From positions 75,011 to 139,010 of the forward strand of contig CAVPHZ010000002.1 of the NCBI GenBank assembly GCA_963704905.1: a DNA stretch of 64,000 bases, written 5' to 3'. Below, in pieces: positions 35,136 through 51,883 of this stretch. The stretch comes from Candidatus Chisholmbacteria bacterium (GTDB lineage: Bacteria; Patescibacteriota; Microgenomatia; UBA1400; Chisholmbacteraceae). The stretch's first letter is position 1. Each line of letters begins with the position of its first letter. The notes beneath the pieces are model-generated. The model was not told where the DNA came from. It made no database searches and saw only the letters and a program-made list of their open reading frames with translations. The translations under genes and the position numbers were made by a program.

Positions 35136-35437
35136 CAGACCAGCATTCAAACCGATCACAAAAAAGGCTCATCTCATTTATGCTATTGTTTGTTGTTTTG
35201 CTGATTACAGCAAATCTTGTCGTCAGCAATACTCTTGCCACCACCGGTGAGCAGCTACGAAGTCTCCATACTAGGAGATCGAATCTCGAAAACCAAAACG
35301 ATCAACTCAAACAGCTCATTGTGAAGTACAGTACACTTGAAACAGTAGAAGAAAGAGCCTTTGAGTTAGGCATGGGAAAAGTAGAAGTGACGCGTAATCT
35401 CCAGCTTAACACCCCTGTAGCAATGAAACAATTATGA
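35132..35437 (+). CDS. ftsL: Cell division protein FtsL-like
   Basis: 101 aa with a single TM (LISFMLLFVVLLITANLVV) followed by a coiled-coil region (EQLRSLHTRRSNLENQNDQLKQLIVKY). It sits between rsmH and ftsI. Confidence 0.6.
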   Translation: MTDQHSNRSQKRLISFMLLFVVLLITANLVVSNTLATTGEQLRSLHTRRSNLENQNDQLKQLIVKYSTLETVEERAFELGMGKVEVTRNLQLNTPVAMKQL

Positions 35438-37177
35438 CTCTGAAGAGGTTAAACCTAACGGTCGGCATCTTCCTTGTTTTTGTTGGATTGATTATTGCCA
35501 GATTATTTTATTGGCAAGTCATCAGTGCTGAGGAATTAGCAGCAATTGGAGAAAGCCAGCATATCAGCAAGGTCGAAATACCCTCCAAACGTGGAGAGAT
35601 TCGAACAGCTGATGGTTTTCCTCTAGCCGCCAACCAGGAAACCTTTCTCATATTCGCATATTTACCACAACTTGAACAGTCCTCATCTGAGATCGTTGAT
35701 CAACTCATTCCAATTATTGGAAATAAAATCATTGAAAAAGATGCAACTTCCTCTGCCGAGAAAAGAGCAGTACTGAACCTGAAAGCAAGAGAAGTGCTCA
35801 AAGAAAAACTAGATAAAGACAGCGTGTCTTGGGTACCGCTTGTAAATAATGCTGATATCACTGAGAAAAAAGCAGTCGAAGCGCTTGATATTAGTGGAAT
35901 AGGTATTGAGCCATCATTTACCCGCGATTACCCAGAAGCGTCTATGGCAGCAAATATCTTGGGGTTTGTAGGGCGCGACACAGCCGGGAATCCTAAGGGG
36001 TACTTTGGGCTTGAAGGGTATTATGATCTTGAGCTCAGGGGGAGATCAGGGATGCTTCGGCAAGAAAAAGACGCTACGGGAAAACCAATTCTCATCGGAC
36101 GATACAATGAGCTCGAAGTCAAAGAAGGAAGGCATTTAGTTCTACACATTGATCGGGCGATACAGAAAAACGTAGAGGAAAAACTCAACAGATGGGCTGA
36201 GAAAATACGGAGCAAAGAGTGGCGAAGTAGTCATTATGGAGCCCAAAACTGGAAAGGTAACCGCAATAGCCTCATTACCAGGATATCATCCAGAGAGTTT
36301 CAGCGATTATGATCCATCGCTGTATAAAAATCCAGTGATATCTGAGTCGTACGAGCCTGGTTCTACGTTTAAAGTTTTAACCATGTCAGCGGCACTTGAC
36401 TCCGGAGCAGTAAATGTTGAAACCGAGTGCACGATCTGTGCCGGTCCGGTCAATATTGGTGCGTATACAATACGGACTTGGAACGATGAATACCATCCCA
36501 GTGCAACGATGAAAGAAGTTATTCAGTACTCCGATAACGTCGGGATGGTATTTGTTTCAAGGCAACTTGGAAAAGAAAAACTCTATGAGTATCTAACGAA
36601 TTTTGGAATCGGAAAAAAAACAGGTATAGACCTTGAAGAAGAATCAACCACCCCTATCCGAGATCTTGATGACTGGAAAGAAATCGATCTCGCTACAGCC
36701 TCATTTGGCCAAGGAGTGGCCGTTACGGGAATCCAAATGACTAGAGCAGTCGCGGCAATTGCAAATGATGGTCTTTTACCAACCCCTCAGATAGTTGACC
36801 AAGTGATAGGAGAAAATCGCTTAGATGTTAATCCACATGAACTAAAACGGGTGTTAAAAAAAACCACCGCAAGAGCAATGACGGATCTTATGGTAAACGC
36901 GGTAGACAACGGAGAATCAAAGTGGGCAAAGCCGAAAGGATTTAAAATTGCTGGAAAAACTGGAACAGCTCAAATTCCAGTTGCTGGTCATTATGATACT
37001 GATAAAACCATAGCCAGCTTCATTGGCTTTGCTCCGGCGGACAATCCAAAATTTGTGATGTTGGTAAAGCTTAGGGAGCCAGAGACTTCGCCTTGGGGCT
37101 CAGAGACAGCGGCCCCTCTTTGGTTTTCTATTGCGCAAGACTTATTTTATTACTATGGCATTCAACCTGAGGAATAA
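35434..37177 (+). CDS. ftsI: Peptidoglycan D,D-transpeptidase FtsI / PBP2-type (class B PBP), carrying one homopolymer frameshift
   Basis: N-terminal TM plus PBP dimerisation domain, then the transpeptidase STFK (..EPGSTFKVLT), SDN (YSDNVG) and KTG (KTGTAQ) motifs. The two ORF-track pieces (35434-36312, 36236-37177) join if the A4 run at 36202-36205 is A3, giving AEKYGAKSGEVVIMEPKTG. Confidence 0.8.
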
Positions 37178-37191
37178 ATCATTCTTCTCGA

Positions 37192-38484
37192 GTGAGGTAT
37201 AATTCACTCATGTCCGAGTCTCAATACAATCTAAGAAGTTCTCCGCTGGGAGAAGGAGTTCGAAGTCTCATCCCCAATGAAGTCGTGAACACTCTCTGGC
37301 ATCTTCCCCGGGCAATACTCGCCAATCTTCAATTCGGATTTCCTTCAAATAAATTAATAGTAATTGGGGTAACCGGTACCAAAGGAAAAACTTCAACTGC
37401 TCATTTGATCTATCACATATTAAGTAAATCCAAGAAGAAAGTTGCGCTCATCTCAACCGTAAGTGCTATGATCAATGGTCAAGAGATAGATACTGGTCTC
37501 CATGTTACAAATCCCAACCCCTACAAACTTCAAACATTGCTTAAGAAGATGGTTGATGAAGACGTTGAAATAGTAGTGTTGGAAGTTACAAGTCACGGTC
37601 TTGCTCAACATAGAAATTGGGGTATTCGATTTGAACTTGGTATCATCACCAATATCCAAGCTGACCATATTCAATATCACGGCGGGATTGATAAATATCG
37701 GTTGGCAAAAGCCAAACTTATCAGCCAGTCGTCCAAAGTGTTTCTCAACGCCGATGACCCGCAAAGAGAGTTCTTGACTTTGTTTGCCAAAAAGCACAAT
37801 GTACCGGTCATTCTCTACTCAGGAAATATCGATGATTTCCAGTCTCAAAACCAGCAAGCCGCAATTAAAGTTTCACAAGAATTTGGGGTTACAGAGAACA
37901 AAGCCAAGTCTTTACTCAGCACTTTTCCAGGAATTCCCGGAAGAATGGAAACAATTCAAGACACTCCTCTAATGGTCGTCATTGACTTTGCTCATACTCC
38001 CGATAGTCTTAAGGCCGCACTGCTCACTCTTCGGCGAAAAGTAGATAAGGGTAGCAGACTCATCGCGGTTTTTGGCTGTGCAGGACAACGAGATCCTGGA
38101 AGAAGAATGATGGGGGCTGTTGCAGCGAAGTATGCTGACCTGTTTATCATTACTGCTGAAGATCCGCGTACAGAGAGAGTTGAAAAAATAAGCAGCGACA
38201 TTGCCAAGCATGCGGTAAACGAAGGTGCGATCGAGATATCTCAAGAGAAGTTTCATTCCTATGAACGAAAGCAGAATAAGAGTTCAGCAATCTTTACCAG
38301 GATTCCTGATAGAAAAAAAGCTATAGCCAAAGCCATCCACATAGCCAGGCCTGGAGATGTGGTAGGATTATTTGGAAAAGGACATGAAAAGAGTATGTGC
38401 TTTGGCAAAACAGAATATCCGTGGTCAGAACACGAAGTTGTTCATCAGGCACTGAACATAACCAAAAGAAAGGAAGAGAAATGA
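37192..38484 (+). CDS. murE: UDP-N-acetylmuramoyl-L-alanyl-D-glutamate--2,6-diaminopimelate (or L-Lys) ligase MurE
   Basis: GVTGTKGKTST P-loop, VIDFAHTPDSLKAAL, ITAEDPRTE (a DNPR-like motif) and GKGHEKSMCFGKTEYPWSEHEVV, the MurE C-terminal signature. Confidence 0.8.
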   Translation: MRYNSLMSESQYNLRSSPLGEGVRSLIPNEVVNTLWHLPRAILANLQFGFPSNKLIVIGVTGTKGKTSTAHLIYHILSKSKKKVALISTVSAMINGQEIDTGLHVTNPNPYKLQTLLKKMVDEDVEIVVLEVTSHGLAQHRNWGIRFELGIITNIQADHIQYHGGIDKYRLAKAKLISQSSKVFLNADDPQREFLTLFAKKHNVPVILYSGNIDDFQSQNQQAAIKVSQEFGVTENKAKSLLSTFPGIPGRMETIQDTPLMVVIDFAHTPDSLKAALLTLRRKVDKGSRLIAVFGCAGQRDPGRRMMGAVAAKYADLFIITAEDPRTERVEKISSDIAKHAVNEGAIEISQEKFHSYERKQNKSSAIFTRIPDRKKAIAKAIHIARPGDVVGLFGKGHEKSMCFGKTEYPWSEHEVVHQALNITKRKEEK

Positions 38485-39734
38485 GCGTCACAGCAGTCAT
38501 TCTCGCGGCAGGGGAGGGAAAACGTTTTTTCCCGCTTGTGACGAGCAAACCACTTTTTCCATTTTTAAGTGTTCCCATCCTCAAACATACTCTGGATGCA
38601 TTAGACAAATCAGGCTTTAAGAAGATTGTAATCGTAACCAATCCTCAGGATGCAACTGAAGTAAAAAACCTGTCCCAAAAGCAAAGCAATATCAAATATG
38701 CAATTCAGAAATCTCCGACCGGAATGTCCGACGCTATTCTGTCAGCGCAAGTGTATTTGAAAGGCTCCTCAATCTTTATTCTCAACGCCCAAGATGTTGT
38801 TGATCAGCATCTGTTTGACCTCGCCTTCAAAGCGACAAACAAACAGAAAAACTTCATCATTGCTAAAAAGCAAAAAGAATATTTCGATGGTGGTTACCTA
38901 AGGGTTAAAAATAATAGGCTTCTAGAGATAATTGAAAAACCAGGTGAAAATAATCAGCCAAGTGATTTTATCAACCTTGTTTTTCATTTCTTTTCCCACC
39001 CAGATGAGTTTCTCAATCAGTTAAAACAAACAAAAAGTTCATCGGATGATGTCTACGAACGTGCATTTTCTTCATTTGCAAAAAAAGAGAATGTTGAAGT
39101 CATACCATACGAGGGATTTTGGCAGACCGTGAAATATTCTTGGCAAATTTTAAATATGACTGATGTAATGCTACAACATTTCCTTAAACCACAGAATAAC
39201 GCAACATTTATTGCCAAGTCGGCCCGGGTTGATCAAAATGTATATCTAGGAAAAGGAGTAAAAGTACTTGAAAATGTCGTCATCAAAGGTCCCAGTTACA
39301 TTGGTGATAACACACTCATCGGCACGAATACACTAGTCATTAACTCAATGATTGGCCAGCAAAGTGTCATCGGATATGGAAGTGAGGTTAGTAGAAGTTA
39401 CCTAGGCGACAATTGTTGGATCCACACAAACTATATCGGAGATTCTGTTTTGGAGGGTGGGAACTACTTCGGTGCAGGTGCCGTTACGGCCAACTTCCGT
39501 TTTGATGCTGGTCATATAAAGACTCATTTCAAAGGGGAGCGAATCAATACTCAGAGAAACAAATTTGGTGCAATTATTGCCAAAGATGCTCGCGTGGGGG
39601 TAAATGCGAGTATCATGCCCGGAGTAAAAATTGGTGGTAAAAGCACAGTCGGTCCAGGTGTGGTCCTGCTCCAGGATGTACCAGCACAAACTCGCACGTT
39701 TGTGAGTCAACAGCTTCAAGAACGGAAAGGATAA
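38481..39734 (+). CDS. GlmU-like bifunctional protein: sugar-1-P nucleotidyltransferase domain plus C-terminal hexapeptide acetyltransferase domain
   Basis: ILAAGEGKRF nucleotidyltransferase start. The C-terminal LbH region GAGAVTANFRFDAGHIKTHFKGERINTQRNKFGAIIAKDARVG resembles the GlmU acetyltransferase domain. The ATG overlaps the murE stop as ATGA. The ORF track begins earlier at 38397. Confidence 0.55.
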   Translation: MSVTAVILAAGEGKRFFPLVTSKPLFPFLSVPILKHTLDALDKSGFKKIVIVTNPQDATEVKNLSQKQSNIKYAIQKSPTGMSDAILSAQVYLKGSSIFILNAQDVVDQHLFDLAFKATNKQKNFIIAKKQKEYFDGGYLRVKNNRLLEIIEKPGENNQPSDFINLVFHFFSHPDEFLNQLKQTKSSSDDVYERAFSSFAKKENVEVIPYEGFWQTVKYSWQILNMTDVMLQHFLKPQNNATFIAKSARVDQNVYLGKGVKVLENVVIKGPSYIGDNTLIGTNTLVINSMIGQQSVIGYGSEVSRSYLGDNCWIHTNYIGDSVLEGGNYFGAGAVTANFRFDAGHIKTHFKGERINTQRNKFGAIIAKDARVGVNASIMPGVKIGGKSTVGPGVVLLQDVPAQTRTFVSQQLQERKG

Positions 39735-39741
39735 AACCAGA

Positions 39742-40488
39742 ATGAACTCAGTTGCGGCCATAATTCTCGCTGCCGGAAAAGGATCTCGGATAAATGCCCA
39801 GAACACGAATAAAGTACTCCTGACACTCGCTGGTAAACCAATGATTGGCTATACCGTTGACATACTAAACAAACTAAACATTTCAACCATCATTGTTGTT
39901 GTCGGGCATCAAAAACAACAAGTAAAAAAGTATTTAGGAAACAAAGTTGAGTATATGACTCAGAAACGTCAACTGGGAACCGGACACGCGGTAATGCAGG
40001 CAATGAAAGCTCTTCCTGAAAGTTGCAGTGAAGTGATAGTACTCTATGGTGATCATTCTTCGTTTTACACTCCTGACATGTTAAAAAACATCATTCGAAG
40101 TCACAAACAAAACAAGGCTGACATGACGTTTGTCACCGTGAGAAAAAAAGATCCAGCTGGATACGGTCGAATCCTACGCGACGATAAAGGCAATCTTCTT
40201 GGTATTCGTGAGCACAAAAACGCCTCTCCCGCGGAAAGGAAAATAAAGGAAATCAATGCCGGAGCCTATTGTTATTCACTCCCCTTTCTCAATACCTATT
40301 TGACAGAGATTAAGAAGGACCCAATCAAAGGAGAGTACTACCTTACTGATCTTCTTTCAATTGCTCTACTGAATAATTGCAGAGTAAATCCGTATCTCAT
40401 CAACGACGAGCTGATATCAGTTGGTGTAAATACTCTCCAAGAACTCGCACTTGCAGATACAATTATGAAAAAAAGGTTACCTCAATGA
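39742..40488 (+). CDS. UDP-GlcNAc pyrophosphorylase-like nucleotidyltransferase (GlmU N-terminal domain only)
   Basis: AAIILAAGKGSRINAQNTNKVLLTLAGKPM...QLGTGHAVMQAM...LYGDHS...DPAGYGRI...NAGAYCY...GEYYLTDL is colinear with the E. coli GlmU uridyltransferase domain. 248 aa with no LbH domain. Confidence 0.65.
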   Translation: MNSVAAIILAAGKGSRINAQNTNKVLLTLAGKPMIGYTVDILNKLNISTIIVVVGHQKQQVKKYLGNKVEYMTQKRQLGTGHAVMQAMKALPESCSEVIVLYGDHSSFYTPDMLKNIIRSHKQNKADMTFVTVRKKDPAGYGRILRDDKGNLLGIREHKNASPAERKIKEINAGAYCYSLPFLNTYLTEIKKDPIKGEYYLTDLLSIALLNNCRVNPYLINDELISVGVNTLQELALADTIMKKRLPQ

Positions 40489-43657: not shown

Positions 43658-44977
43658 ATGGAGAAGTTCATTATCACTGGAGGAAAGAAATTATCCGGAT
43701 CGATTCGATTAGGTGGAGCCAAAAATGCGAGCTTCAAGCTCATGATAGCAAGTCTTCTTGCCAGTGGGGAATCTCGACTTCTAAATTCACCCCATATCAA
43801 CGATGTTGAGGTGACCAGGAACATCATTACCCAACTTGGAGGAATTATAAAGGGTTCCGGGGAAAGAATGCTCTGCATAGACACAGCTCCTCTGAAGTCT
43901 CATATCATCCCAGCTCATTTTGGCAAACTGTCCCGCGCATCAACCATGTTCGCCGGACCTCTTCTTGCCCGTTTCGGAAAAGCTACACTCCCTTTGCCCG
44001 GAGGAGATAAAATTGGTGCCCGTCCACTGGAACGCCACTTTGAAGGCCTCATTTCTATGGGTGTAAAAGTACAACAACAAGGAGCAACTGTTCAAATGAC
44101 GGCACAAAAGCTGAAAGCGACGACCTACGCGTTTAAAAAAAACACCCACACAGGCACTGAGACGTTAATTTTGGCTGCAGTACTTGCAGAAGGAAGGTCT
44201 ATGTTAGAAAATGCCGCACTCGAACCAGAGATCGATGATCTGATTTCTATGTTGAACAGCATGGGAGCAAAAATTCGAAGGAAATTGGATCGAAAAATTG
44301 AAATTATCGGAGTCAAAAAACTCTCTCCAACGATTCACAAAATCATGCCGGATCGGAATGAGGCTGTTTCATACGCATGTGCAGCGCTTGCTACCAGAGG
44401 AGATGTGATCGTCGAAAACGCACAAAAAGATCATCTAGAAGCATTTTTAGAAAAGCTTGAAGAAGTTGGAGGAGGATTCGAAGTCGGTAATTTTGGCATT
44501 CGTTTTTACTACAAAGGAAAGTTGACTGCAACTGATGTCATTACTCAACCTCATCCGGGATTTATGACCGACTGGCAACCACTTTGGGCAGTTCTCATGA
44601 CGCAGGCTGAGGGCACCTCAATAATCCATGAAGCCGTACACAACAACCGATTTCAATATGTAAAAGACTTAAATAGTATGTGTATAAAAAAAATATCGCT
44701 TTACAATCCAAAAGTGAAAAATCCTGAAAGTTACTACAACTTCAACATTCAAGATGATAATAAAGATTATTATCATGCAATAAAAATTCGCGGAAAGTCA
44801 AAACTGTGTGCGTCAATCTTAAAAGTACATGATCTAAGAGCTGGAGCTACGCTGGTTCTGGCATCACTCATAGCTAATGGACAAAGTGTCATTCATGGTG
44901 TCGATCACATCGATAGGGGTTACGAAAACCTTGATGGACGGCTTATTGATCTTGGTGCTAAAATTAAGAGAGCATAG
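43658..44977 (+). CDS. murA: UDP-N-acetylglucosamine 1-carboxyvinyltransferase MurA
   Basis: GGKKLSGSIRLGGAKNASFKLMIASLLASGESRL MurA N-terminus and the catalytic-loop region (..PGGDKIGARP..); 439 aa. Confidence 0.85.
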   Translation: MEKFIITGGKKLSGSIRLGGAKNASFKLMIASLLASGESRLLNSPHINDVEVTRNIITQLGGIIKGSGERMLCIDTAPLKSHIIPAHFGKLSRASTMFAGPLLARFGKATLPLPGGDKIGARPLERHFEGLISMGVKVQQQGATVQMTAQKLKATTYAFKKNTHTGTETLILAAVLAEGRSMLENAALEPEIDDLISMLNSMGAKIRRKLDRKIEIIGVKKLSPTIHKIMPDRNEAVSYACAALATRGDVIVENAQKDHLEAFLEKLEEVGGGFEVGNFGIRFYYKGKLTATDVITQPHPGFMTDWQPLWAVLMTQAEGTSIIHEAVHNNRFQYVKDLNSMCIKKISLYNPKVKNPESYYNFNIQDDNKDYYHAIKIRGKSKLCASILKVHDLRAGATLVLASLIANGQSVIHGVDHIDRGYENLDGRLIDLGAKIKRA

Positions 44978-45004
44978 CAAAGGAGGTGTTGAAGAAAAAA
45001 CAGG

Positions 45005-45200
45005 ATAGAGCGTGTGGTCCAGCCACAATAGAGATGTGGCTGGAAGACGAGGATGAGGGATACCAATTTCTTGGTGATCGGACCTCCCATGTTATATGGG
45101 AGAGTATCTACGGAGACCCTCTGGGTGAGCGAACATCCACAAGAGAATACATCAACATCAAAAAGAAATTATTGAGACAAAGTGTATTCCCAATTCGTTT
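45005..45200 (+). ncRNA. glmS ribozyme: glmS ribozyme (GlcN6P-responsive self-cleaving riboswitch) in the glmS leader
   Basis: UAGAGCG...GACGAGGAUGAGGGAUACCAAUUUCUUGGUGAUCGGACCUCCC aligns closely with the Bacillus glmS ribozyme core as I recall it (AGCGCC...GACGAGGAUGGAGGUUAUCGAAUUUUCGGCGGAUGCCUCCC). P3/P4-like downstream sequence is present (..GAGAAUACAUCAACAUC..). It lies 90 nt upstream of glmS. The 78-aa ORF at 44986-45222 in the supplied track is therefore probably spurious. Confidence 0.75.
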
Positions 45201-45290
45201 AGGTCAACTTCGGCCGATATGATTTTCATGAAATAAATATAGTAAAGTCACGACATCATCGTGGCTAAACTTGCCCGCAGGAGGTTGAAA

Positions 45291-47066
45291 ATGTGTGGAA
45301 TATTTGCTTATACAGGTATCGATATCAATGGTGCTCAAATAGTGCTTGATGGTCTAAAAAGTCTCGAGTATCGTGGCTACGACTCTTGGGGTATTGCCGT
45401 AATGAATGAAAATAAAGCAAGTTTCAGGATAAAAAAGAAAGTGGGTAAGATTGGAAACGCAACTATCAAGGGATTGCCACTCATGAGTGCATTTGGGTTT
45501 GGACATACACGATGGGCGACCCATGGTGGTGTCACAGTGAACAACGCTCACCCCCTGGCTGATTGCACAGGCAAGGTGGTGGTTATTCATAATGGAATAA
45601 TCGAAAATTACGAAAAAATCAAACAAGAATTAGTAAAAAAGGGTCATCGTTTTACTTCCGAAACCGACACTGAAGTAGCGGTACATCTCATTGAAGAGCT
45701 GAAAAAAAGATACTCATTTCAGGTGTCAGTGCAACGAGCCTTCGAGCGATTCGAGGGGTTAAACGCCTTGATTGTTGCAGATGTGGCCAGTCAAACATTT
45801 ATTGCAGTTCGTAACGGATCACCATTAGTAATCGGTTTTGGAAAAGACAGCAACTTCCTATCTTCTGATGCAGCTGCTCTGCTTCAGCATACTCGGAAAG
45901 TATATTTTCTCCAGGACCACGATTTTGTTGAAGTGACGAAGAGCAACGTAAAAGCAAGGAATTTAAAAACAGGAAGAACATTGCGCATAAAGCCACTCAA
46001 ACTCAATTGGGAGTTCAAGCAGGCAGAAAAAGGACGATTTCATCATTTTATGCTTAAAGAAATCATGGAACAGCCAACAATCTTAGAAAATATCAGCTCT
46101 ACAGGATTATCTGGCGCCAAACAACTTGCAGCTGTAATAAAGAACGCTAGAGAGATACATATTGTTGGTTGTGGGACAGCTGCATACGCAAGTATTGCAG
46201 GATCATATCTATTTTCAAAAATTGCCAAGCAACAGATGAGCTGGGATGTAGGAAGTGAGTTCAACTACAAGCTTGAATTTTTATCACCGAAAAGTTTAGT
46301 CATTGCCTTATCTCAATCAGGAGAAACCATAGATACTCTAGAAGCAGTTAAAAAAGCGAAACAAAAGGGGGTAAAAATCGCTGCTCTTGTAAATGTACTT
46401 GGCTCAACATTGTACCGAGGAGCTGATCTAAAGATACTCATTGGTGCCGGACCAGAGAAAGCTGTAGCCTCAACCAAAGCATTTACCAGTAAAATCGGCC
46501 ATCTTATTCTCACGGCATTTGCACAAAGTGGAAAAGAGCAGGAAGGACAATACATACTACGTAGGGCAGCCAAAGCAAGTAAGACTGTTCTCCGCGGTCA
46601 ATCTATAAAAAACATTAGAAAGCTCGTTCTGAAAATCAAAAATGTAAATCACATCTATGTTATCGGAAGAGGACTTTCATACCCAGCATCACTAGAGACG
46701 GCACTGAAAATAAAAGAGATCAGCTACATCCACGCTGAAGGATTTGCAGCAGGTGAGCTGAAACATGGTGTCATTGCACTCGTTGAAGAAGGGACACCCT
46801 GCATCGTCTTTGCTCCCAATGATGAAACATACGGAGCGAATCTTGCTGGAGCTATGGAGATGAAAGCCAGAGGTGGAATGATCATCGGTATATCTCACAT
46901 ACCGCATAGCGTATTCGATCATTACATACCTGTTCAAGATGCCAAGCAAGCGACAATCATTCCAAATGTTATTGTCGCTCAGTTACTCGCCTATGAACTA
47001 GCACTTGCGCGAGGGTTGGACCCGGACATGCCCCGCAACTTAGCAAAATCGGTGACTGTCAAATAG
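45291..47066 (+). CDS. glmS: Glutamine--fructose-6-phosphate aminotransferase GlmS
   Basis: Begins MCGIFAY (the N-terminal catalytic Cys), followed by two SIS domains; an AGGAGG ribosome-binding site lies 8 nt upstream. The ORF track starts 30 nt earlier at 45261. Confidence 0.9.
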   Translation: MCGIFAYTGIDINGAQIVLDGLKSLEYRGYDSWGIAVMNENKASFRIKKKVGKIGNATIKGLPLMSAFGFGHTRWATHGGVTVNNAHPLADCTGKVVVIHNGIIENYEKIKQELVKKGHRFTSETDTEVAVHLIEELKKRYSFQVSVQRAFERFEGLNALIVADVASQTFIAVRNGSPLVIGFGKDSNFLSSDAAALLQHTRKVYFLQDHDFVEVTKSNVKARNLKTGRTLRIKPLKLNWEFKQAEKGRFHHFMLKEIMEQPTILENISSTGLSGAKQLAAVIKNAREIHIVGCGTAAYASIAGSYLFSKIAKQQMSWDVGSEFNYKLEFLSPKSLVIALSQSGETIDTLEAVKKAKQKGVKIAALVNVLGSTLYRGADLKILIGAGPEKAVASTKAFTSKIGHLILTAFAQSGKEQEGQYILRRAAKASKTVLRGQSIKNIRKLVLKIKNVNHIYVIGRGLSYPASLETALKIKEISYIHAEGFAAGELKHGVIALVEEGTPCIVFAPNDETYGANLAGAMEMKARGGMIIGISHIPHSVFDHYIPVQDAKQATIIPNVIVAQLLAYELALARGLDPDMPRNLAKSVTVK

Positions 47067-49409: not shown

Positions 49410-50755
49410 CACCTTTTAATCAGTTCAAACATGATTTTGAAGGCAGAAGAGTACTGATATTTGGTCTCGGACTCCTTGGAAGAGGTGTAAGTGTTGCAAA
49501 ACTCTTCTGCGAAATTGGCTGTACAGTTACAGTAACGGATAAGAAAAACTCTACTCAATTAAGAACATCACTTCAAAATCTCAGCAAGTACAACATTCGA
49601 TACACGCTAGGTGAACACAAAAGAGAGGACATCGATCAATCAGAAGTGATCATCCGAAACCCTGATGTTGTATGGCATCATCCTCTATTAGAGAGAGCTA
49701 GGAAGAAAAACATTCCTATAAATATGGACACGTCACTATTTGCGAAGTATTTTCCGGGATTGTTAATCGGGATTACTGGAACTAGAGGGAAAACCACAAC
49801 CACTGTTCTCATTTATGAGATGCTAAAGTCGACATATAAAAACGAGGTTATATTAGCTGGAAATGCAACTGAAAAAGCAAATTGTGCCTTACTCAAAGAA
49901 ACTACAATCAAGACCATTGCTGTTGCCGAATTATCTTCTTGGGAGTTAGAAGGTTTTGAAGCGGAGCAGATCAGTCCGAGTATCTCCATCGTCACCAATA
50001 TTTATCGCGATCATCTAGATCATCATAGGAGTTTTAGTGAATATGTAAGGCGAAAACAAGCGATTTTCTCAAATCAAAAGAAAAACGACACCATCATTTT
50101 AAACAGAAATAACAAATGGACTAAAGACATGTCAAAAAAAGTGAATTCAAATATCATCTGGTTTGATGAACAAACCCTACCTGAAAACTGGCAATTAAAA
50201 CTCATAGGATTGCATAACCGAGAAAATGCTTCAGCAGCCTATTGTGTTGGAAAGAAATTGAAAGTAAAAATAAGCTCAATAAGAAATGTTTTTGAACAAT
50301 TCAAAGGCGTTCCTCACAGACTTGAATCTATTGGATATGTAAACAAAGTAGAATTCATAAACGATACAACATCAACAACACCGATAGCGACTATTAAAGC
50401 TCTTCAGTCCATGTCAAATCCAACCATTCTGCTGGTTGGTGGGAATACGAAAAATCTTCCACTGAGAGAACTCACCTCCCAACTAGGAAAAAGAACGAAA
50501 GCAATTGCACTATTACGAGGAAGCGGATCAGCAGAGCTGTACGAACTCATTAAAAGCGATAACAACATTACAATTATTTCAGAAGATCGTGATTTTGATG
50601 AAACAGTATGGACTGCTTTCAAGCACGCCGACCCTGGAGATTCTATACTGCTGAGTCCTGGTTTTACTTCTTTTTCAGAATTCAATAATATCTTTGAAAG
50701 AGGTAAGAGATTTAGAGAAGTTGTAAAAAAACTAAGATCAACGCATGGTAAATAA
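49406..50755 (+). CDS. murD: UDP-N-acetylmuramoylalanine--D-glutamate ligase MurD
   Basis: Rossmann-like N-terminus (VLIFGLGLLGRGV), GITGTRGKTTTT P-loop and the Mur ligase domains. ATGA overlap with murI. Confidence 0.8.
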   Translation: MTPFNQFKHDFEGRRVLIFGLGLLGRGVSVAKLFCEIGCTVTVTDKKNSTQLRTSLQNLSKYNIRYTLGEHKREDIDQSEVIIRNPDVVWHHPLLERARKKNIPINMDTSLFAKYFPGLLIGITGTRGKTTTTVLIYEMLKSTYKNEVILAGNATEKANCALLKETTIKTIAVAELSSWELEGFEAEQISPSISIVTNIYRDHLDHHRSFSEYVRRKQAIFSNQKKNDTIILNRNNKWTKDMSKKVNSNIIWFDEQTLPENWQLKLIGLHNRENASAAYCVGKKLKVKISSIRNVFEQFKGVPHRLESIGYVNKVEFINDTTSTTPIATIKALQSMSNPTILLVGGNTKNLPLRELTSQLGKRTKAIALLRGSGSAELYELIKSDNNITIISEDRDFDETVWTAFKHADPGDSILLSPGFTSFSEFNNIFERGKRFREVVKKLRSTHGK

Positions 50756-51883
50756 AAAAACGAAAAGAAAAAAACGGCAAAAAGCGAAAACAATCCGCCT
50801 ACGCTTTAAAGGGAGAGAGGCAAAAACTGATGTTATCCTGGTAGCTGTCGTTGCAGCACTTTCATTATTCGGAATACTAATAGTCTATGATGCATCTGTA
50901 ATAGAAGCCTATCGTAGTTTTTCAGATAAATTTTTCTTTGTTAAGCAGCAGTTGATCTGGACTGCAATTGGTTTAACCCTGGCAGCGGTGATGTCCGTTA
51001 TACCGTATCATGTGTACAAAAAACTCGGATTTTGGGCTTTTGCAGCATCTCTATTACTTTTGTTTTTTGTATTGCTTCCCGGCATAGGGTCCAAGACTTT
51101 TGGAGCGAGAAGATGGATTGCGTTAGGCAGTCTTTCCCTTCAACCAGCCGAGTTTACAAAACTAACTCTGATTATGTATCTCGCTTCATTCTTAGAAAAA
51201 AAGGTCGCATCCTTCAATTTCTGGTAATACTTGGTGTAGTAGCAGGGCTTATCATGCTTCAGCCAGATTTGGGAACTACTGTGGTGATGAGTAGCATAGC
51301 GGCGGGCATGTACTTCATTTCTGGCGCACCCATACTCAGCTTTACACTCCTTGGATTTGGGGGGATCGTCACTGGAGCCATGTTTATACTCACCTCACCA
51401 TATCGTAGAGCCAGAGTAGCCACATTTCTCAATCCTACAGAAGATCCGCTCGGTGCATCCTACCACATTCGACAGGTGCTCATTGCCCTAGGCTCAGGTG
51501 GATTGTTCGGGTTGGGTATTGGAAAATCCAGGCAAAAATACGAGTATATTCCTGCGGCGACAACCGACTCAATATTTGCAATCATTGCTGAAGAAATTGG
51601 CTTTTTTGGATCGATTGTAATAATTTCCCTATTCACGATATTCATTTTTCGGGCCTTTAAGATTGCAAAACAGGCACCGGATCAATTTACTCAACTGCTT
51701 GCGGGTGGAGTAGCGGTTTGGATAAGCAGCCAAACTGTGCTGAATCTTGCAACCATGGTCGCACTTGTACCATTAACTGGTGTTCCTCTTCCATTCATTT
51801 CATATGGAGGGTCTTCAACGGTAGCAAACCTCGCTGGTGTCGGTTTGCTCTTAAGTGTGAGTCGTTATGCAAAAAAAAGATAG
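50745..51883 (+). CDS. ftsW: Peptidoglycan glycosyltransferase FtsW (SEDS family), carrying one homopolymer frameshift
   Basis: SEDS signatures (QPAEFTKL, LQPDLGT, PLPFISYGGSS). The ORF-track pieces 50745-51227 and 51032-51883 join as ..LASFLEKKGRILQFLVILG.. if the A7 run at 51196-51202 is A8. Confidence 0.75.

Follow-up and report, generated by a model that had tools for sequence, protein, structure and literature searches.

What lies between murA and glmS in the genome of a Candidatus Chisholmbacteria bacterium (Patescibacteriota, Microgenomatia), a small protein gene or a regulatory RNA? The question is raised by a 64,000-nucleotide stretch of contig CAVPHZ010000002.1 (assembly GCA_963704905.1), referred to here as the window. 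The supplied track of open reading frames (ORFs) places a 78-aa ORF at this locus, and the first-pass annotation, made without database searches, proposed instead a glmS ribozyme in the glmS leader. All positions given are those of the window, and all features described are on its forward (+) strand. We conclude that positions 45009-45199 very probably constitute a glmS ribozyme in the 5' untranslated region (UTR) of glmS, that this ribozyme belongs to a subclass of the Microgenomates (Patescibacteria, or Candidate Phyla Radiation, CPR), and that it would exert feedback by glucosamine-6-phosphate (GlcN6P).

The whole window was scanned against 4227 Rfam families at their curated thresholds, and a single match was obtained, that to the glmS ribozyme family RF00234 at 44998-45200. 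Its score of 68.8 bits (gathering score 37; E 1e-13) puts this match far beyond chance; it is also untruncated, as it covers model positions 1-167 of 167. The search that had been proposed as a check on the first-pass assignment thus bears it out. The sequence quoted in support of that assignment is present as well, with AGCG at 45009-45012 and GACGAGGAUGAGGGAUACCAAUUUCUUGGUGAUCGGACCUCCC at 45046-45088, and the distance of about 90 nt between the end of the element and glmS is 91 nt from the end of the match to the glmS ATG at 45291, on the same strand. The element is 191 nt long. The minimum free energy fold of 45010-45200 (-61.9 kcal/mol, z -3.6) recovers P1, P2, P3, P4, P4.1 and the second of two extra hairpins described below, and all eight canonical helices (P1, P2, P2.1, P2.2, P3, P3.1, P4 and P4.1) can be placed by hand with standard pairs. 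The Rfam match and motif parsing were used throughout, rather than a covariance model of our own, and helices were placed by combining the Rfam alignment with direct reading of the sequence and with the published registers of the Thermoanaerobacter tengcongensis and Bacillus subtilis ribozymes (PMC7125110, PMC11602151).

The predicted scissile bond, A(-1)/G1, falls between A45009 and G45010 according to the alignment with the Rfam consensus aA/GCGCC, 281 nt upstream of the glmS ATG. Its context at 45007-45017 reads AGA/GCGUGUGG, so that A(-1), G1, C2 and G3 are all present. The 5' strand of P2.2 occupies 45011-45016 (C2, G3, U4, G5, the bulged U6 and G7, in the register of PMC7125110): 45011-45014 and 45016 pair with 45108-45112 as C-G, G-C, U-A, G.U and G-C, and U45015 is bulged out. 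The 3' strand of P2.2, CUACG (45108-45112), runs into G45113 and A45114 of the active-site strand, the whole segment (45108-45116) being placed by sequence reading and the Rfam alignment. P1 is a hairpin of 10 bp (45018-45027 with 45035-45044; -17.6 kcal/mol, z -5.6). The core strand GACGAGG (45046-45052), which aligns to the Rfam consensus GACGAGGA, provides C45048, G45049 and A45050 as the 5' strand of P2.1, and the 3' strand consists of U45078, C45079 and G45080 within AUCGGA (45077-45082), read in the published register of C38-G55 and G39-C54 (PMC11602151). The complementary P2.1 strands 45048-45050 and 45078-45080 would form pairs that are invariant in the lineage (98.6% paired, without covariation). 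Core residues with catalytic or pocket roles are found at the aligned positions, namely G45049, A45047, G45113 and A45114. The B. subtilis residue G39 is presumably equivalent to G40 of T. tengcongensis and to G33 of B. anthracis. The roles assigned to the P2.1 guanosine (B. subtilis G39), to the A37-like adenosine and to the GA following P2.2 (like G67 and A68) are those of a published study (PMC11602151).

P2 is formed by GAGGG (45055-45059) and CCCUC (45117-45121). CCUCCC (45083-45088) had been taken for the closing strand of P2 in the first-pass annotation; this was rejected, as these nucleotides are part of the second inserted hairpin. CCCUC was assigned as the P2 3' strand because CUACGGAGA, which contains the P2.2 and active-site strand, then stays in the register of the family, and because it covaries in the relatives; the Rfam alignment places it likewise. 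The P3 hairpin (45123-45138) pairs GGGUG with CAUCC (45123-45127 with 45134-45138), as placed by Rfam alignment and folding, and its loop AGCGAA (45128-45133) serves as the 5' strand of P3.1; the 3' strand, UUCGUU (45194-45199), was read from the sequence and would close this pseudoknot with six pairs, most relatives having a complementary segment there. The accessory domain at 45144-45190 (Rfam alignment; folding z -3.9) comprises P4 (45144-45150 with 45184-45190), an A-rich internal loop with the strands AUCAACA and GACAAAGU, and P4.1 (45158-45164 with 45169-45175), which is capped by the GAAA tetraloop 45165-45168. P4 and P4.1 contain one non-standard pair each.

The Rfam alignment skips 49 nt where the consensus has 13, and it is in this stretch that AUCGGA and two extra hairpins are located. 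Inserted hairpin 1, between P2 and P2.1, pairs 45061-45066 with 45071-45076 (-4.0 kcal/mol, z -3.0) and has no counterpart in the Rfam consensus. Inserted hairpin 2 sits in the loop leading from P2.1 to P2.2 and pairs 45084-45091 with 45095-45102 (-10.9 kcal/mol, z -3.6). The inserts measure 17 nt and 23 nt, respectively, and both hairpins fold independently.

The possibility that the region encodes the 78-aa protein, its resemblance to a ribozyme being incidental, is given almost no weight. What speaks for it is the uninterrupted ORF itself, which extends from a GTG at 44986 to 45222 and is preceded directly by AAGGAGG. This Shine-Dalgarno (SD)-like motif overlaps the GTG, however, which leaves zero spacing, and the 78-aa product has neither a Pfam nor an NCBIfam match. 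When the ORF frame is counted from G1, 24 of 26 relatives have stop codons among the first 70 codons, whereas the RNA motifs are invariant. A tblastn search with the peptide against 147 relative loci, described next, gave one marginal match (E 0.005), and the conservation that is seen takes the form of helix covariation rather than a codon-like pattern. The ORF of the track was therefore rejected as a gene, which agrees with the first-pass view of it.

To what extent is the element shared by related bacteria? A GlmS protein search of species-representative genomes returned 67 loci, the best being 69% identical, and a scan of metagenomes added 80 loci, all with GlmS of at most 64% identity; no relative above 69% GlmS identity was found in the genomes and none above 64% in the metagenomes. 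The relatives are essentially all metagenome-assembled genomes (MAGs) of Patescibacteria/Microgenomates, including Gottesmanbacteria, Woesebacteria and several third-party annotation (TPA) records, and every close GlmS relative is of this kind, in line with the earlier impression of a CPR-like host. The RF00234 threshold was reached in 18 of the 59 genome loci scanned. By motif parsing, the subclass motifs were present in 28 of the 60 genome loci with sufficient upstream sequence and in 36 of the 70 metagenome loci with at least 300 nt upstream; at the other genome loci, glmS abuts the neighboring gene, which leaves no room for a ribozyme. A search with the exact motif GACGAGG had made the ribozyme seem rare among the relatives, an artefact, since the lineage has UACGAGG. 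As judged from these sequence motifs, the ribozyme is common but patchy across the lineage, being found at about half of the related glmS loci, and the suggestion that a CPR setting is atypical for it no longer holds. The title 'uncultured Gammaproteobacteria bacterium' is given to many TPA MAG records (for example, L003, L005, L007 and L008 of the 147 loci, numbered L001-L147) that carry the same GlmS and ribozyme subclass as the named Gottesmanbacteria and Woesebacteria, and such titles look generic or wrong.

The 27 parsed members yield the consensus A/GCGUGUGG - P1 - RAU ACGAGG - A(N) - P2 - [hairpin 1] - AUCGRA - [hairpin 2] - AUCUGCGG RNR - P2' - P3. The segment GCGUGUGG, directly 3' of the cleavage site, is invariant (27/27), as is ACGAGG, and AUCGRA is nearly so; position -1 is A in all members except L012, which has G. 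The window alone has the canonical G of GACGAGG, most others having UACGAGG, and it shares with L066 the sequence UACGG instead of UGCGG, by which the U4.G wobble becomes a U-A Watson-Crick pair. Of the 27 members, 20 have an insert of at least 12 nt at the first site and 23 have one at the second. These inserts are closed hairpins in 20/20 and 22/23 cases, with mean z of -4.6 and -4.1, respectively, and their sequences are unrelated between members. A core of canonical length was found in L007 and L009 only.

Covariation was scored in an alignment (A2) of 23 sequences from which the inserts and the P1 apex had been excised, for 24 pairs in the base of P1, P2, P2.1, P2.2 and P3. Standard pairs account for 94.6% of the cells; shuffling the columns lowers this to 84.4%, and shifting the partners by 1-3 columns lowers it to 30-50%. 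Both sides change in 12 of the 24 pairs, and the covariation score of 0.295, versus 0.112, was reached in 0 of 500 shuffles, figures to be read in the light of the trimming and of a register for the P2 5' strand that was set by complementarity and so favors P2. Changes on both sides affect all six basal pairs of P1 (6/6), 3/5 pairs of P2 and 3/5 of P3; P2 occurs as six different helix sequences, with 100% of cells paired. The variation of P2.2 within the lineage is one-sided: pair 4-54 is U.G in 21 sequences and U-A in two. Compared with the canonical family (C4-G54, C5-G53), the P2.2 pairs 4-54 and 5-53 are altered on both sides, with pairing and the bulged nucleotide both kept.

Which RNA would the ribozyme cut? 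The 3' end of murA contains a predicted promoter-like site at 44935-44964 (TGGACG, 18 nt, TG-n-TAAAAT; 9/12 matches, TG-extended). In 29 of 46 unique sequences (45 relatives and the window's own), the -10 box of the best promoter match ends 36-50 nt 5' of the cleavage site, the modal range, and the typical form in the relatives is TTGACA, 17 nt, TAGCAT. Because the -10 box of the window site ends at -46 from the cleavage site, and thus within this range, we infer a dedicated glmS promoter, with transcription starting near 44971 and a leader of about 39 nt. The cleavage site lies just 32 nt past the murA stop codon. Most relatives have glmS by itself, flanked by genes on the opposite strand, the downstream genes being convergent, and the conserved target of the ribozyme is for that reason taken to be glmS alone. 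The first-pass annotation had envisaged a single RNA switch for the synthesis of both UDP-GlcNAc and UDP-MurNAc. This extension finds no support, because the ribozyme acts in cis on the RNA downstream of the cut; since, in addition, the promoter-like site in the 3' end of murA occupies the promoter position of the relatives, the upstream mur genes are probably not under its control. Co-transcription with glmS, if it occurs, could bring dgkA and the genes after it under the influence of the cut.

The most consistent reading of these data is as follows. Transcription would start near 44971, from the promoter within the end of murA, and the RNA would fold into the double-pseudoknot core (P1, P2, P2.1 and P2.2), braced by P3/P3.1 and P4/P4.1, with the two extra hairpins projecting from core loops. 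Accumulated GlcN6P, the product of GlmS, is expected from family membership to bind a preformed pocket and to act as the cofactor for cleavage at A45009/G45010. The cut would remove the leader of about 39 nt and leave a glmS mRNA with a 5'-hydroxyl end, which would most likely decay via RNase J, so that the supply of GlcN6P is placed under negative feedback. Self-cleavage in this family produces a 2',3'-cyclic phosphate end along with the 5'-hydroxyl end. In Bacillus, the 5'-hydroxyl end of the cleaved glmS mRNA signals decay by RNase J1. In known glmS ribozymes, GlcN6P is the cofactor and cleavage leads to decay of the mRNA (PMC5473149). The RNase J route is plausible here because at least 90% of CPR genomes have kept rnj, as they have certain other ribonuclease genes (PMC12641178).

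Several points weigh against this reading. We infer both the cleavage activity of the window element and its dependence on GlcN6P from sequence. The two hairpins interrupt loops of the catalytic core, and one of the interrupted loops (core residues 47-50 of T. tengcongensis) makes a tertiary contact with P1 (PMC7125110). The canonical C4 and C5 are replaced by U and G in the window, and in the T. tengcongensis core a single change at position 5 is highly damaging, with a loss in rate of about 1000-fold, the 5-53 pair being at the same time poorly conserved in nature (PMC7125110). P2.1 and P2.2 are near-invariant in the lineage, which makes covariation uninformative for both, and to this is added the caveat on A2 given above. 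Promoter-like sites are no more numerous in the region than in shuffles, so that the site taken by itself is not significant, and no RNase J gene was found among the window proteins scanned, which represent part of the genes in the 64 kb.

These departures from the consensus, at positions 4, 5, 53 and 54 and in the 17- and 23-nt core-loop inserts, together with the cost of position-5 changes, might indicate a decayed relic or a GlcN6P-independent ribozyme, in which the fold has been kept and the metabolite switch lost. We consider this very unlikely. Dozens of divergent species, with GlmS proteins that are 55-69% identical, share the altered core without variation, which points to purifying selection. 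The changes keep pairing, and P1, P2 and P3 covary; the insertions recur at the same two sites and are nearly always closed hairpins; and the accessory domain is intact, including its GNRA loop and A-rich internal loop.

It should also be considered whether cleavage acts in ways other than RNase J decay alone, an alternative that we regard as rather improbable and that can take two forms. In the first, the cut would be a processing site in a long dcw/mur transcript and set the fate of dgkA, mraY, murI and murD. The genes of the cluster lie on one strand with short gaps, and no terminator-like site was found on the + strand in the tail between the ribozyme and glmS or between glmS and dgkA. Operon control cannot be the conserved role of the element, though, given the monocistronic glmS with convergent downstream genes in most relatives, and a transcript dedicated to glmS is favored by the location of the promoter-like site at the modal position. 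In the second form, the tail would block the ribosome binding site (RBS) of glmS. This tail, or expression platform (45200-45290; delimited by sequence and folding), contains CUUCGGC (45208-45214), UCAACUUC (45204-45211), a hairpin (45246-45266) and the SD sequence GGAGG (45280-45284). The segment UCAACUUC is complementary over 8 bp to the glmS RBS GAGGUUGA (45281-45288), with -12.4 kcal/mol in the window; the leader resembles the RBS (GGAGGUGUUGAAGAAAA versus GGAGGUUGAAAA); and the modelled probability that the SD is unpaired drops in the window from 0.63 to 0.52 on cleavage. Across the relatives, however, cognate pairing between tail and RBS is no better than non-cognate pairing (permutation p 0.92), and the mean modelled SD accessibility shifts very little (0.39 versus 0.33), with a drop of more than 0.1 in just 5 of 17 cases. 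Sequestration of the RBS by the tail was accordingly set aside as the main route and is kept as a low-confidence rival, and decay of the cleaved mRNA via RNase J stays the favored outcome.

Two further structures were observed in the tails. The hairpin 45246-45266, between the ribozyme and the glmS RBS, has 8 bp (-10.1 kcal/mol, z -4.7); it was rejected as a terminator, as no U-tract follows it. In many relatives, among them L005, L007, L015, L017, L028, L029, L037 and L039, a tight mini-hairpin UCUCC-GAA-GGAGG within the last 20 nt upstream of the ATG buries the glmS SD; it is absent from the window.

The leader that cleavage would release (44971-45009; defined from sequence and relatives) contains the SD-like AAGGAGG (44980-44986) and the candidate pairing segment GUUGAAG (44988-44994). 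Most relatives conserve such an SD-like sequence, (A)AGGAGG(U), close to the predicted 5' end of their leaders; it has no start codon at a usable distance and may be a 5' stabilizer or a partner of the conserved tail sequence CUUC(A). In the relatives, moreover, the leader forms a covarying helix with the nucleotides immediately 3' of P3.1, outside the canonical boundaries of the ribozyme, which encloses the entire ribozyme and has a 5' strand ending 10-16 nt before the cut. A strong example is that of L029 (AAAAAGCGG/CCGCUUUUU); L054, L074 and L015 are further members in which it was noted, and the helix sequences differ from member to member (AAAGCGG/CCGCUUU, GAAGUGGUU/AACCACUUC, GGGAGUAA/UUACUCCC, GGAGCGAU/AUCGCUCU and AGAAGCAA/UUGCUUCU). 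The helix was evaluated by permutation of duplex energies, since 7 of 18 sequences were misregistered in a MAFFT alignment (A3). Cognate duplexes were more stable than non-cognate ones in 26 genome loci (-14.65 versus -12.27 kcal/mol, permutation p 5e-5) and, independently, in 36 metagenome loci (-14.87 versus -12.56 kcal/mol, 0 of 20000 permutations). The window has a weak version, in which GUUGAAG (44988-44994) would pair with CUUCGGC (45208-45214) over 7 bp at -6.8 kcal/mol, displaced by 7 nt.

Speculatively, the leader-tail helix could be a clamp, or a 5' protective module that is severed by cleavage. We tentatively propose that the Microgenomates glmS ribozymes form a distinct subclass, characterized by core-loop hairpins, a rewired P2.2 and the leader-tail helix with its SD-like GGAGG, and that their leader may be a detachable 5' cap whose loss upon GlcN6P-dependent cleavage would expose the mRNA to RNase J. 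The cap might then be the paired 5' end, perhaps together with a bound 30S subunit, and ribozyme and stabilizer would be one integrated device; this last step is speculation.

The regulated gene, glmS (45291-47066), encodes glutamine--fructose-6-phosphate transaminase, with a match to NCBIfam TIGR01135 of 611 bits against a cut-off of 418 over residues 2-590. Its true start is the ATG at 45291 (MCGI...), which aligns from model position 1; the GTG at 45261, with which the longest ORF begins, was rejected, since the ATG gives the canonical MCG... N-terminus. According to Pfam and NCBIfam, the ribozyme is surrounded by a cell-wall and division gene cluster that lies entirely on the + strand. Upstream are, in this order, a split penicillin-binding protein (PBP) gene, a Mur ligase gene, a glmU-like gene, an NTP-transferase gene, a gene of the Cu-oxidase_4 family, murC, murB and murA (43658-44977), and glmS is followed by dgkA, mraY, murI, murD, ftsW (split), murG, ftsA and ftsZ. 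The GlmU-like, MurA, MurB and MurC functions reported for this neighborhood in the first-pass annotation are thus all encoded there. The adjacent nucleotidyl-transferase genes upstream (38397-39734 and 39742-40488) differ, one being glmU-like with hexapeptide repeats and the other shorter, with NTP_transferase only. The FtsI-like PBP gene is split into overlapping ORFs in different frames, a PBP_dimer ORF and a Transpeptidase ORF (35434-36312 and 36236-37177). Likewise, ftsW consists of two overlapping ORFs (50745-51227 and 51032-51883), one matching the N-terminal and the other the C-terminal part of the FtsW model; the change of frame coincides with a run of nine A (approximately 51194-51203), which suggests a homopolymer sequencing error or slippage.

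The class, its mechanism and its link to glmS can be found in textbooks, the window copy is easily picked up with the standard Rfam model, and our understanding of how glmS ribozymes work is unchanged. What is new, as far as we have checked, are the host lineage and the decorations of the subclass, core-loop insertions possibly having been mentioned earlier; a literature search, confined to one searchable library, found no paper that links glmS ribozymes with CPR names. The annotation of the locus is corrected from a hypothetical protein to an RNA gene-control element, and a metabolite-dependent ribozyme is placed in a CPR cell-wall gene cluster. To our knowledge, very few regulators are recognized in CPR bacteria, and almost no riboswitches have been described in them. 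The lineage amounts to a set of natural experiments on the ribozyme core, with hairpins at two fixed loop sites, a wobble-paired P2.2 and a leader-tail clamp, which could inform studies of folding and ribozyme engineering, and genetic work in Patescibacteria might make use of a native GlcN6P-responsive switch as a tool.

How does the element compare with known systems? It would serve the same purpose as GlmY/GlmZ of the Enterobacteriaceae, namely GlcN6P feedback on GlmS synthesis at the mRNA level. GlmY and GlmZ, however, are trans-acting small RNAs that depend on the adaptor RapZ and on RNase E, without a cis ribozyme, and they are unrelated in sequence and structure; nothing resembling them was seen in the window. 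A second comparison concerns mRNA stability. Gram-positive bacteria possess 5' mRNA stabilizers; in Bacillus, RNase J1 is blocked by STAB-SD elements, which are SD-like, and by stem-loops at the 5' end. The window resembles these in having an SD-like GGAGG without a usable start codon near the predicted 5' end of the leader, and the relatives in having a leader paired to RNA that follows the ribozyme. The putative protective module would differ from STAB-SD elements in being removable by ribozyme cleavage instead of constitutive, and the resemblance, known here from sequence, is offered as a lead.

The closest comparison is with the RF00234 ribozymes of B. subtilis, B. cereus, B. anthracis and T. 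tengcongensis. The window element is longer, with 191 nt versus 142 nt for that of B. cereus (PMC1635283), and has U-G/U-A in place of C-C/G-G at positions 4-5/53-54 of P2.2. The linkers P2-P2.1 and P2.1-P2.2, which in the Rfam consensus total 13 nt, hold inserts of 17 and 23 nt in the window element. It also differs from the canon in its Patescibacteria/Microgenomates host, in a lineage where UACGAGG prevails, although the window keeps the G, and where relatives add a leader-tail helix. With the ribozymes of these bacteria it nevertheless shares the position in the glmS 5' UTR, the same eight helices, the A/GCG cleavage context, the core strands GACGAGG and AUCG...CGGA, the bulged nucleotide 6, the GNRA-capped P4.1 and the A-rich internal loop of P4.

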